Notes: generated from the sequence alone by a model not told the origin. 64,000 nt of DNA from a virus (IMGVR_UViG_3300031992_000076:13904-77903), one strand, 5' to 3'. Numbered from the stretch's first letter, positions 3 to 64,000 are shown. Program-made: numbers and translations.

Positions 3-455
3 GCTGCAGTTAATGCGGGAACCGCTCAGAGTGTAGCTACAACAAATCAAGTTTATCATGATGTTGTTGGTTATGTTGGAGATAAATATGATGAGCTTGC
101 TAGAGATATTTATGGAGTAGGTACTAGTGTTCAGCAAGCAATTGCTAATCAGAATGAATGCTGCTGCAGTACCAAGATGCTTATTGCTGACTCCGTTGCT
201 GGTATTAATGCAGGTATTGCACAGAATAGATACGATGCAGCAATGAATACTGCAGCTATCAATGCGAATACAACAGCTCAGACTCAGAAGATTCTTGATG
301 CTATTACTGGTAACAGAATGGCTGATATGCAGCAACAGATTAACGACTTACAGCTTCAGAACCAGCTTCAAACTGTAGTTCGTTATCCTAGCAATACTTT
401 TTATGCAGTTCCCTCACCTTGTTTTAATACAGGCTGTGGATGCGGAAATATTTAA
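3..455 (+). CDS. 5'-truncated hypothetical protein with CCC motif and Cys/Gly-rich C-terminus (spore-coat-like cassette)
   Basis: Frame is open from position 3 (AAVNAGTAQ...NQNECCCSTK) into the listed 177..455 ORF; ends PSPCFNTGCGCGNI. Confidence 0.75.
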   Translation, partial: AAVNAGTAQSVATTNQVYHDVVGYVGDKYDELARDIYGVGTSVQQAIANQNECCCSTKMLIADSVAGINAGIAQNRYDAAMNTAAINANTTAQTQKILDAITGNRMADMQQQINDLQLQNQLQTVVRYPSNTFYAVPSPCFNTGCGCGNI

Positions 456-469
456 TTTAATATAGTATG

Positions 470-503
470 GCGGGAACCGCTTATCACAGGAGCGGATTCC
501 CGC
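470..503 (+). terminator. GC-rich hairpin of the GCGGGA palindromic family, followed by a T-run
   Basis: GCGGGAACCGC...GCGGATTCCCGC then TTTT. Confidence 0.55.
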
Positions 504-528
504 TTTTCAATTAAGGAGGAAAATAAAA

Positions 529-936
529 ATGAGTAAATCAGCAATTTATACTGCTAATTCTTCTGCTCAAAATGTTGCCCTTAATGGGGTAATAAATCCA
601 GGAACTATTATTAGACGTTATGGACCTAATCTCGGATTATCTGGAAATGCTATTCAAATAGATGGTCCTGGTTATTATAACATTCAAGCTAGTATCACCG
701 CAGCACCAACTGCCGCTGGCAATGTAACTATTACAGTATATAAAGATGGTGTTGCAATTCCAGGTGCTACAGCAACACAGTCTACCTCTGTAGCAAATAA
801 TCCACTAAATCTTTCTATTTCTTCTCTTGTTCGAGAATTTTGTTCTTGCTGTGATGGTCTATCTAATTTGACCTTTGTTCTTACCGGCACCGCCGCAGCA
901 ATCTCCAATATCGCTATTGTAGTAGAAAAATTATAA
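529..936 (+). CDS. Small beta-rich protein, BclA-C-terminal/C1q-like jelly-roll suspected
   Basis: AAGGAGG RBS; beta-strand pattern GYYNIQASITAAP...TITVYKDGVAIPGATA; fold is inference. Confidence 0.6.
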   Translation: MSKSAIYTANSSAQNVALNGVINPGTIIRRYGPNLGLSGNAIQIDGPGYYNIQASITAAPTAAGNVTITVYKDGVAIPGATATQSTSVANNPLNLSISSLVREFCSCCDGLSNLTFVLTGTAAAISNIAIVVEKL

Positions 937-1157
937 TGAATAATAATAGCAATCAATTAACTTTTCTTGATATTATTAGTATAATGAGTTTTTGTATTAG
1001 CTTAATGAATTTAGATGAAAATTTATCTCAAGGAGATAAACAAGATTTGCAAAATGATTTAGCTGAAAAAATGAAAATTATACTTAAAGAAATACATAGT
1101 CATTTAGAAGATCAAGATAGGAAAATAGATAAAATATTAGAGGAGGTAACCAAATGA
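936..1157 (+). CDS. Hypothetical coiled-coil protein
   Basis: 73-aa ORF translationally coupled to both neighbours. Confidence 0.7.
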   Translation: MNNNSNQLTFLDIISIMSFCISLMNLDENLSQGDKQDLQNDLAEKMKIILKEIHSHLEDQDRKIDKILEEVTK

Positions 1158-1714
1158 CCATAGATGAAATTTTTAGTCAATTGAGTGAACATATGATTGA
1201 AGGTCTTATGATACATTCACAATTAAGTGATTACTTTGGATTTATTGGGTTAGATGGATACCAAACATGTCATAAATACCACTATTTTATAGAAAACGCT
1301 AATTATAAAAAGTTAGGAGATTATTATCTTCATCATTATAACAAAATAATTACAGAAACTCCATTTAAAAATCCTAATATTATTCCAGAATCATGGTATC
1401 AGTATACTCGATTTGATGTTAATGCAACTACAAGAAAAAATGCGATTCAAGTAGGAATTGAACATTGGGTTACTTGGGAAAATGATACTAAAAAATTATA
1501 TGAAATATTATATCGAGAATTAATAAAATTAAATGAAGTGGCTGCTGCCAAAGAACTTTGTAAATATATTGAAGATGTAGACAAAGAATTATCTGAGGCA
1601 TGCCAAAAACATATAGAACTTACTGCAATTGATTATAATATTTCAGATATAATAGTAGAACAAGAGGAATATAAAAAGAGGTATAAGAAAAAATTAAAGG
1701 AGATTAATCTATGA
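1154..1714 (+). CDS. Ferritin-like four-helix-bundle protein (putative)
   Basis: GAGGAGG RBS; helical, with ExxH-like ligands (HMIEGLMIH, HKYHYFIE). Confidence 0.55.
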   Translation: MTIDEIFSQLSEHMIEGLMIHSQLSDYFGFIGLDGYQTCHKYHYFIENANYKKLGDYYLHHYNKIITETPFKNPNIIPESWYQYTRFDVNATTRKNAIQVGIEHWVTWENDTKKLYEILYRELIKLNEVAAAKELCKYIEDVDKELSEACQKHIELTAIDYNISDIIVEQEEYKKRYKKKLKEINL

Positions 1715-1884
1715 GTAAAATAGAGGAAATAGAACAAGAGATAAAAAAATTAGAAGAAAAAGAATATCTTACTTATGATATTTGTCAAAAATTAGCTATT
1801 CTTTATATTGTAAAAGATCATATGGCGGGCGCCGACCCTAGTTCAAAGATGGGGATGACCGGTCCATCCGCTATGATGAGATAA
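1711..1884 (+). CDS. Small hypothetical protein (57 aa)
   Basis: ATGA overlap with the upstream stop; MSKIEEIEQEIKKLEEKEYLTYDICQKLAILYIVKDH... Confidence 0.65.
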   Translation: MSKIEEIEQEIKKLEEKEYLTYDICQKLAILYIVKDHMAGADPSSKMGMTGPSAMMR

Positions 1885-1926
1885 AAAAAGAGCCTAGTCT
1901 TTAATTAGACTAGGCTTTATTTTTTT
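1883..1926. terminator. Bidirectional intrinsic terminator between convergent units
   Basis: A-run, AGCCTAGTCT/AGACTAGGCT perfect stem, T-run. Confidence 0.9.
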
Positions 1927-1928
1927 GC

Positions 1929-2375
1929 TTATTTTTCTCCAGTTGATCCGAATCCCGCACTACCTCTATCTGTATCGTCAAGATTATCAACCACATTAAA
2001 TTCAATATTAAGATATGGCTGAATAATTAATTGAGCAATACGCTCCTGAGGATCAATATACTGAGTTTCGTCGCTGTCATTATGTAGAGCTACGATAACA
2101 GGACCTCGATAGTCTGAATCAATAACCCCGATGCAATTTGCGGGACGCAAGCTTCGCTTTGTTGCAAGTCCGCTTCGAGCATATATACCCCCAAAATACC
2201 CTTTAGGAATTTCTAAAGAGATTCCCGTATCTACTTTGACTGTTTGATGAGCGGGAATGCAGATTTCTTCATCAGAAGCTGCATATAAGTCCATCCCCGC
2301 AGCTTCAACACTTCCTCTTGTGGGAATCTTTGCCAGTTTATTAAGTAATTTAATATTTACCTCTGTAACTATCAA
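1929..2375 (-). CDS. dut: Trimeric dUTPase
   Basis: Motifs AGMDL, RSG, GVIDSDYRG, RGSAGFGSTG. Confidence 0.97.
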   Translation of the reverse strand: MIVTEVNIKLLNKLAKIPTRGSVEAAGMDLYAASDEEICIPAHQTVKVDTGISLEIPKGYFGGIYARSGLATKRSLRPANCIGVIDSDYRGPVIVALHNDSDETQYIDPQERIAQLIIQPYLNIEFNVVDNLDDTDRGSAGFGSTGEK

Positions 2376-62944: not shown

Positions 62945-63045
62945 TTTATCTCTCCTTACTACGTTTTATGGTCTATACAAGAGATAAGTTAGTAAAGTAG
63001 TAAAATAAAAAGGAATAGTTAAAAACTATTCCTTCTTATACGAAT

Positions 63046-63150
63046 GTCTGGACCAAAAGGTTTACCAAACTTTTAGTTTCGCTTCTTAGGCTCTTCGTAA
63101 AGCCGCACCCTACGGTTTGTCTGGGTCATAAGTAGGTATCGACCCATCCA
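63046..63150 (-). ncRNA. Unassigned structured RNA candidate
   Basis: UGGGUC/GACCCA, GGCU/AGCC, CAAAC/GUUUG, UGGA/UCCA stems; followed by terminator 63008-63034. Confidence 0.45.
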
Positions 63151-63225
63151 TTTTTCTAGTGAAAATACAAAATATTAAATATATTTTATATTTGAGCAAT
63201 ATTTTGCATCAGTATTGCTACTGAA

Positions 63226-63301
63226 TTGGGGTGCAGAGATTTGAACTCTGGATCTCTCGCTCCCAAAGCGAGCGCCTTAAACCAAACTGGGCTACACCCC
63301 A
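63226..63301 (-). tRNA. tRNA-Pro(UGG)
   Basis: UGGGGUG/CACCCCA, CUCGC/GCGAG, loop UUUGGGA. Confidence 0.9.
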
Positions 63302-63306
63302 TGATA

Positions 63307-63330
63307 GGCGGGAATTATTACCCTCCCGCC
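63307..63330. repeat. GCGGGA-family hairpin
   Basis: GGCGGGA-ATTATTACCC-TCCCGCC. Confidence 0.55.
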
Positions 63331-63453
63331 AAGCTGTATACAGAAGGCTTGTCTTGGTCGAACGATATGGAGAATTCACAGTATTCTACTTTTCGTTGTT
63401 GACAATTTAAGTTAGCGCATTATCCTAACACCTATTTTAAGGAAGGGTTTTTA

Positions 63454-63744
63454 TTATATTTGAAAATTAACTTTTCTTGCTTGGGCATTAATAAAATTTT
63501 TGAAAATTCTCATATTATTTTGATTTTTCCAAGCATAAAATATAAAGCATTTGTCCTTATCATATGAAATTTTTTCAGGATGATAAGTATTTACTAATAA
63601 TTTAATAAATTCGGCGGGAGATATACCTAAAATTCTAGCTGGAATATACCATTCTGCGGAACCGCCACCAATGTTACTTACATCATTACAATGCCAGAAT
63701 CCCGCTGCATCTTGCCATTCTTCAGCTTTCCAAACTTTAGCCAT
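63454..63744 (-). CDS. Hypothetical protein
   Basis: 96 aa, AAGGAG RBS. Confidence 0.7.
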   Translation of the reverse strand: MAKVWKAEEWQDAAGFWHCNDVSNIGGGSAEWYIPARILGISPAEFIKLLVNTYHPEKISYDKDKCFIFYAWKNQNNMRIFKNFINAQARKVNFQI

Positions 63745-63753
63745 GTCTACTCC

Positions 63754-64000
63754 TTATAAATGCAATTCCTCAATTAATCTACGTACTTCTGCAACTTCTT
63801 CATCAGTCATCTCTGTATTCTGCGGGATTGCTTGACTTGACGATGCCACAAAGCTCGTCTGTCCGCCCATTAAATCTTTAGCCGCAGTAAGGGCAATTTT
63901 TATTTCAATCGGTTCTCCCTCACAAGTGGTAGGAATACGTATTGTCTTTCCATCAGTATCCATAAATGAATTTGGAAATACTTGCAAGATTGCTTTAGTT
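63754..64000 (-). CDS. 5'-truncated hypothetical protein
   Basis: Frame remains open to window end; C-terminal EMTDEEVAEVRRLIEELHL. Confidence 0.65.
   Translation of the reverse strand, partial: TKAILQVFPNSFMDTDGKTIRIPTTCEGEPIEIKIALTAAKDLMGGQTSFVASSSQAIPQNTEMTDEEVAEVRRLIEELHL

Follow-up and report, generated by a model that had tools for sequence, protein, structure and literature searches.

Analysis of a viral DNA stretch of 64,000 nt (the window), which comprises bases 13904-77903 of one 77.9-kb virus record in IMG/VR (IMGVR_UViG_3300031992_000076), confirmed that the word GCGGGA and its complement TCCCGC are present in strong excess, and that this excess is real and not driven by coding. 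GCGGGA is the local form, D-GCGG-R-A (D, any base but C; R, either purine), of an excess of the tetramer GCGG/CCGC that extends through a family of uncultured phages of the gut and rumen, large and AT-rich, a point that a preliminary description of the same DNA had missed. We tentatively favor the explanation, which is quite possibly correct, that GCGG is a selected word which a phage-encoded and probably dimeric factor reads on duplex DNA. Full-text literature searches for GCGGGA or GCGG in phages found no published account of this pattern. Unless the window is named, the counts given for this phage refer to the whole record, whose completeness was estimated by CheckV at approximately 52%.

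Exact matching found 59 GCGGGA/TCCCGC sites in the window (28 on the plus strand and 31 on the minus strand), spanning positions 15 to 63827, which bears out the approximately 55 copies reported in the preliminary description. Dinucleotide-preserving shuffles of the window averaged 5.90 ± 2.32 sites; the highest value was 11, and none of the 100 shuffles reached 59. The earlier expectation of about 3 sites was a little low, the order-0 expectation being 4.7, and the large excess derived from it stood; four of the example coordinates were displaced by 1-2 nt (15468, 20759, 20777 and 54780 correspond to sites at 15470, 20758, 20776 and 54778). Across the 77.9-kb record, 71 sites were counted where 5.6 were expected, and GCGGGA ranked first among all 6-mers in order-0 z-score. 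The many GCGGA variants that had been noticed were likewise recovered (GCGGA, 99 versus 35.0 expected; GCGGAA, 54 versus 11.9 expected). The sites showed an extended preference for D-GCGG-G-A-A, in which the base at position -1 was never C and the base after the word was A in 43 of the 71 sites, and positions +7 to +10 were GC-rich. Information in the sites is carried by the 4-nt core, a single position on the 5′ side and approximately six on the 3′ side.

At the level of the core, GCGG/CCGC was the top 4-mer of the record, with 345 occurrences against 103 expected (observed/expected ratio, O/E, of 3.35), even though total CpG stood at 0.61; the window alone contains 290 such words. Among the ten distinct NCGN words, eight were depleted (0.28-0.63) and GCGC was neutral (1.1), leaving GCGG at 3.35. 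We also compared the record with synonymous shuffles, in which codons were permuted inside each gene so that every protein and the codon counts of each gene were kept. GCGG was found 305 times versus 131 in these shuffles (z = +18.4), far above other tetramers, and the next-ranked tetramers, CGGG and GGCG, both overlap GCGG.

By reading frame, the 71 GCGGGA sites were distributed as 22/9/4 in sense, 7/8/10 in antisense and 11 in intergenic DNA. The enrichment persisted against synonymous shuffling, with 35 sense sites where 5.1 were expected (z = 14) and 25 antisense sites where 4.4 were expected (z = 12), the antisense frames being enriched equally. The refuting outcome named in the preliminary description, loss of the enrichment on codon shuffling, therefore did not arise. 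The largest single class of sites consisted of Ala-Gly pairs written as GCG-GGA (22 of 71), several of the intergenic sites lay within hairpin stems, and the words GATC, CCGG, GGCC and GTAC are avoided in the genome, observations that would suit an origin of the excess in amino-acid composition, codon usage, terminator hairpins or restriction-site avoidance. We regard such a by-product as exceedingly improbable, given that synonymous shuffling stripped away 85% of the sites. The rare codon GCG accounts for 9% of Ala, but GCG-GGA writes 22 of the 88 Ala-Gly pairs (25%; 3.3 expected) despite the freely usable alternatives GCA-GGA and GCT-GGA; moreover, TCC-CGC writes 7 of the 62 Ser-Arg pairs (0.2 expected), and 84 of the 129 GCG codons are followed by G. 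A codon or dipeptide artefact was rejected by synonymous shuffling together with the codon-pair tables, and terminator hairpins were rejected as the main source because intergenic DNA contains only 11 of the 71 sites and an inverted partner is lacking at most of the coding ones. A general property of low-GC, CpG-poor DNA was rejected by phage and bacterial controls, the bacteria with the same GC content and CpG depletion being without the excess.

The distribution of the word among phages was delineated from the polymerase gene. At least 80 relatives are present in IMG/VR (polymerase identity 58-85%, contigs of up to 165 kb), and GCGG O/E was 2.1-5.4 (median 3.6) in all 68 polymerase-related loci of at least 8 kb. 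The excess was present on every branch of a polymerase phylogeny built with FastTree. The preferred 3′ flank differed by clade, being GA (GCGGGA) in the clade of the window and in one other and AA or CA elsewhere, and on the 5′ side T or G was favored and C disfavored. As a control set, 62 phage loci were retrieved via lysin homology; in 60 of them GCGG O/E was 0.2-2.3, and the two exceptions (L135 and L168, O/E 5.8 and 3.3) are distant, syntenic members of the same family. Because the lysin-related controls were low and their exceptions belong to the family itself, the excess tracks phage ancestry rather than GC content, habitat or lysin type. GCGG density offers a simple bioinformatic marker of the phage family.

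The nearest cultured relatives of the polymerase were 34-39% identical and comprised SPbeta-like Bacillus phages (the best, at 39%), Enterococcus phages and Phass-1, the last of which (42% GC) showed a weak GCGG excess of 1.33. No close cultured relative was found by polymerase comparison, and a megablast search with 25 kb of sequence returned 0 matches in the phage collection. Two relatives of 142 and 134 kb (L043 and L026) have direct terminal repeats and are rated complete, so that the present phage probably has a genome roughly double the size of the record.

Low-GC bacterial DNA provided the second control. In three Bacillota metagenome-assembled genomes (MAGs) that hold the nearest lysin homologues (29-31% GC, CpG 0.43-0.58), GCGG was depleted along with every other CpG word (O/E 0.55-0.83), GCGG and AGCGG were both at or below chance (O/E 0.55-1.0), and GCGGGA O/E was 0.7-0.9. 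The density of GCGGGA was 0.91 per kb in the phage versus 0.04-0.06 per kb in these MAGs; overall, the phage exceeded them in density 5-9 times for GCGG and 15-25 times for GCGGGA, and it looks host-like at every CpG context except GCGG. Furthermore, none of 452 sampled genomes from two phylum-level groups had GCGGGAA at the phage density together with an approximately 6-fold ratio to the reversed word. This ratio was 6.1 in the phage, reached a maximum of 4.6 among the 452 genomes, and was at most 2.7-3.7 in low-count genomes. In five Bacillota genomes (G026, G058, G064, G024 and G420), GCGGGAA was 3.4-4.6 times as frequent as the reversed control, and most of these genomes seem much higher in GC than the phage.

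In addition to single words, the record contains a palindromic pair of fixed spacing. GCGG-N3-CCGC (N3, three intervening bases) occurred 8 times versus 0.4 expected given the raised word counts, and 85 times versus 4.7 in the relatives; within the window, 6 perfect dyads were found versus 0.01 in shuffles. One-mismatch partners were in excess at exactly N3 (19 versus 4.7), and outer flanks T..A lengthened the palindrome in 27 of 94 family dyads where approximately 11 were expected. The everted order CCGC-Nk-GCGG was not enriched. The dyads of the window and its paired intergenic sites are listed below, without strand except where single arms are given.

15-25: perfect dyad GCGG-GAA-CCGC, within a gene and overlapping a GCGGGA site.
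470-480: dyad GCGG-GAA-CCGC, inside the intergenic inverted repeat at 470-503.
470-503: intergenic inverted repeat with GCGGGA arms at 470-475 on the plus strand and 498-503 on the minus strand, which looks like a terminator.
9686-9696: dyad GCGG-CCT-CCGC, within the Pol III alpha gene.
16625-16635: dyad GCGG-CCG-CCGC, within the RecJ-like gene.
19455-19465: dyad GCGG-TTT-CCGC, within the DnaB-like helicase gene.
54918-54928: dyad GCGG-TAT-CCGC, within a tail-region gene.
38393-38421: intergenic hairpin with arms GGCGGGA and TCCCGCC.
40116-40154, 51318-51381 and 63308-63329: inverted GCGGGA pairs similar to the hairpin at 38393-38421.

The alignment column of the dyad at 9686-9696 bears a dyad in 10 of 54 polymerase orthologues. 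The paired intergenic sites are a minority class that forms terminator-like stems.

Comparison of orthologues indicated that the maintained quantity is the copy number of the word and not its positions. In the polymerase alignment, 1 of approximately 29 GCGGGA columns was broadly conserved, and the other columns were lineage-patchy, being absent in sister sequences and often arising in parallel at the same permissive position. Sites were gained via rare codons or through substitutions such as AGA to CGG, AAA to CGC, GCT to GCG and AAGAGA to GCGGGA. Between close relatives (91% identity), 64% of GCGG words were kept, the highest value of the CpG-containing or GC-only tetramers (others 40-60%), and the gains and losses of GCGG were mostly CpG transitions (GCAG, 159, and GTGG, 136, of approximately 600 changes).

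This transition-rich turnover is what a context-specific mutation or repair bias, acting in place of selection, could leave behind. Such a bias might be a T:G-to-C:G correction at GCGG/CCGC by very-short-patch-like repair tied to a CCGC cytosine methylase, or an error signature of the Pol III alpha replisome of the family; the trait does track a phage family that shares one replication machinery, and drive of this kind could fix slightly deleterious rare codons and amino-acid changes. We nevertheless consider a bias quite unlikely as the source of the excess. Many sites arose from transversions or multi-base changes, the GCT to GCG and AAGAGA to GCGGGA replacements among them, and the lineage-specific flanks and the N3 dyad are unexpected from a simple mismatch-repair or replisome error bias. 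Moreover, the expected by-product, a depletion of the deamination products GTGG and GCAG, was missing (z = +0.6 and -0.3, respectively, versus synonymous shuffles). Domain searches did not find the C5 methylase (PF00145), Vsr (PF03852) or N4/N6 methylase (PF01555) families in the record, nor PF00145 and PF01555 in five large relatives, four of which are at least 90% complete; together with the undepleted product words, this weakens repair of the very-short-patch type in particular.

The domain searches bear equally on the proposal that GCGG is the target of a phage enzyme that modifies bases or nicks DNA, in the manner of T5-like nicks, with extra copies raising the density of marks. A short, orientation-free word whose pairs are spaced like type II interrupted palindromes would suit such an enzyme, which would also explain why the trait is restricted to one phage family. 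Even so, we judge the proposal very unlikely: the methyltransferase domains of the tested families were not found in these genomes, no candidate enzyme was identified, and an assembled sequence cannot show base modification.

The arrangement of the sites along the genome showed no polarity. GCGGGA strand counts were 34 plus and 37 minus in the record, and in two relatives (completeness 100% and 93%) they were 55/48 and 85/75 for the word and 12/9 and 15/14 for the reversed word. Site spacing was Poisson-like or slightly clustered, with a coefficient of variation of approximately 1 or above, and on this basis regular spacing, of the kind associated with priming or one-strand scanning, was rejected. 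No end bias of sites was found on either strand in 6-kb bins of the record, which covers approximately 52% of the genome.

These properties bear directly on Chi mimicry, one of two explanations offered in the preliminary description. GCGG-core words would here switch the host AddAB from degrading phage ends to recombination. If so, replicating or injected phage DNA would be protected and the uptake of CRISPR spacers possibly limited. The two best-supported Bacillota Chi sites, AGCGG of B. subtilis and GAAGCGG of S. aureus, both end in GCGG (bioRxiv 10.1101/2021.07.08.451572), so that the core is common to them and to the phage word. The endolysin of the phage combines glucosaminidase, amidase_2 and SH3_3 domains, a set that points to a Gram-positive host. 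D-GCGG has a density of approximately 1 per 240 bp in the phage, and the density of AGCGG in B. subtilis is of the same order. The phage word is preserved in number and not in position, and its flanks vary by lineage as the flanks of Chi vary by host. In addition, Chi-rich phages are documented (the E. coli phage LLS class, P. aeruginosa MD8 and P1; PMC12315714), and these likewise carry a short host-type word above codon expectation.

The differences from these precedents are nonetheless considerable, and we consider Chi mimicry rather unlikely. The sites of the documented Chi-rich phages are 8-mers that lie nearly all in one orientation (20 of 23 and 32 of 32) and are concentrated near one end, in genomes without a recombination (Rec) module (PMC12315714). 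By contrast, the word of the present phage has a 4-nt core (6-7 nt with flanks), is non-polar, is dispersed without favoring an end, and forms a spaced dyad, in a genome with its own recombination genes, which encode a RecJ-like exonuclease, a RecD/Dda-like helicase, a Sak4-like annealase and a RuvC-like resolvase. A dyad of fixed spacing has no role for an enzyme that scans a single strand. Flanks vary between lineages in the Firmicute Chi sites and in the phage word alike, but the former extend 5′ of GCGG and are replication-skewed in the host, whereas the informative flank is here on the 3′ side (G or A, then A). The S. aureus Chi sequence GAAGCGG occurred 10 times in the phage, and the candidate host-type genomes were without a GCGG excess: GCGG and AGCGG did not rise above chance in the three low-GC MAGs, which stand in for the actual host, and none of the 452 sampled genomes matched the phage in GCGGGAA density and ratio to the reversed word. 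The excess was also missing from unrelated low-GC phages whose lysins are related. Of the Chi proposal, then, the shared GCGG core is the part that stood.

The second explanation in the preliminary description, a dispersed binding site for a phage protein, fits better than Chi mimicry, in that the word is orientation-free, its inverted pair is enriched and the excess follows the phage family; the reading protein itself is represented so far by candidates. Five features, namely the lack of orientation, the fixed-spacing palindrome, flanks that drift with phylogeny, the restriction to one family and the absence from host-type DNA, make a dimer-capable GCGG factor the best fit. We infer from them that such a reader exists, that it originates from the phage and that it is dimeric. 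The family maintains GCGG/CCGC at 2-5 times the chance level, with new copies supplied by rare codons (GCG-GGA, TCC-CGC and CGG for Arg) and now and then by amino-acid changes, and with copies lost chiefly through CpG transitions. Under this explanation, a family-encoded factor would read GCGG on double-stranded DNA in either orientation; the simplest such factor would be a protein that binds the GCGG half-site and, as a dimer, (T)GCGG-N3-CCGC(A), with a flank preference that drifts along phage lineages. Given the 5-9-fold higher density of GCGG in the phage than in low-GC bacteria of equal composition, the factor could discriminate phage from host DNA, and the possible outcomes of binding include protection, compaction, recombination, replication or modification.

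Two small winged-helix proteins encoded in the window are candidates for the reader.

25452-25760, minus strand: 102-residue winged-helix protein with an acidic tail and a weak Pfam MarR_2 match, belonging to the family core; a candidate reader only.
22572-22934, minus strand: 120-residue TrmB/MarR-like winged-helix protein (Pfam TrmB, 26.8 bits; cut-off 25.6).

The 102-residue protein was present in all five large relatives at 41-66% identity, and its AlphaFold2 model (mean predicted local distance difference test score, pLDDT, 88.5) adopts a MepR/MarR-like fold with a template modeling (TM) score of approximately 0.6. The 120-residue protein was present in three of the five. On the basis of sequence and predicted structure, the former is only a candidate for the reader, and the latter a second, weaker candidate.

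Several observations weigh against a phage-encoded dimeric reader. The reader is a postulated factor, and fold and conservation are what would link the 102-residue winged-helix protein to it. The dyad spans 11 bp, with 7 bp from one half-site center to the other, a short site for a MarR-type dimer, and approximately 90% of the GCGG words stand alone as half-sites, an uncommon arrangement for an operator-type protein. Family dyads often lie in Ala-rich coding stretches, as in GCG-GCA-GCC-GC, so that coding may contribute part of the dyad spacing signal. A reader encoded by the host may also be considered. Since CheckV puts the record at about half a genome (52%), an enzyme that modifies or nicks the DNA could sit in the remainder, although PF00145 and PF01555 are lacking in four near-complete relatives.

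A more specific version of the binding-factor explanation holds that the phage-encoded protein reads GCGG words and dyads as a density-based self-mark that separates phage from host DNA. We regard this version as speculative and, as it stands, rather improbable. If true, the mark might spare phage DNA from a nuclease of phage or host origin or direct replication or packaging, and it would constitute a phage-owned counterpart of the Chi self-signal that dispenses with base modification.

Short words kept by selection, such as Chi, uptake sequences, FtsK-orienting polar sequences (KOPS) and stoperators, have each revealed a DNA-scanning machine. The stoperators of cluster A mycobacteriophages are dispersed repressor sites of 13-14 bp, asymmetric and oriented with transcription, present in tens of copies scattered within genes and read by a phage-encoded helix-turn-helix protein. 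The phage word resembles them in its scatter inside genes, but it measures 4-7 bp, occurs in both orientations and numbers hundreds of copies; in place of an asymmetric, oriented site of 13-14 bp, we found a 4-nt core with 35 sense and 25 antisense occurrences of GCGGGA. The DNA uptake sequences (DUS) of Neisseria and uptake signal sequences (USS) of Pasteurellaceae are words of 9-12 nt recognized by the uptake machinery of competent bacteria; their copy number is subject to drive, and their inverted pairs are often terminators. The phage word is similar to these in being a genome-wide excess of a short word, but it is a property of a phage family, and the sampled bacteria do not show it. Instead of a 9-12-nt word abundant in a bacterium, the core here is 4 nt long, and GCGGGA reached 0.04-0.06 per kb in the MAGs. 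In the abundant phages described here, a whole family bends its codon choice, and sometimes its protein sequence, for a 4-letter word and a spaced palindrome, and identification of the reader would reveal either a new form of phage self-DNA marking or a new class of AddAB signal.

The record has 32% GC and 8 tRNA genes, and its minus strand holds nearly all genes. In addition to the recombination genes, it encodes a replication set (Pol III alpha, DnaB-like helicase, primase, NAD-dependent ligase and a two-subunit type II topoisomerase), an RNA ligase, a polynucleotide kinase and PhoH. The lysis gene lies at the following position.

32544-33998, minus strand: three-domain endolysin gene, best full-length identity approximately 50%.

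This lysin gave weak, mixed matches to MAGs of Clostridia, Bacilli, Erysipelotrichaceae and Coriobacteriia, which yielded no host assignment. No close endolysin homologue was found among the polymerase-family relatives or elsewhere in IMG/VR, indicating that the lysis gene is exchanged far faster than the replication core.

Across the record, GATC was the most depleted tetramer relative to synonymous shuffles (91 versus 182, z = -10.3), and CCGG, GGCC and GTAC were likewise depleted. This depletion looks like restriction-site avoidance and hints at GATC-cutting systems in the host.

The polymerase match extended over approximately 5.1 kb rather than 3.9 kb in many relatives (L046, L047, L061-L067, L070-L075, L078 and L081), in which an intein, an intron or an inserted endonuclease seems to break up the gene. 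In the window, a 327-residue protein (24387-25370, minus strand) has 95 C-terminal residues that match GIY-YIG homing endonucleases, and its gene sits between the head protease gene and that of the small winged-helix protein. A 494-residue protein (58227-59711, minus strand), located within the tRNA/small-RNA region, matches DUF2828, DUF7788 and a VWA domain.

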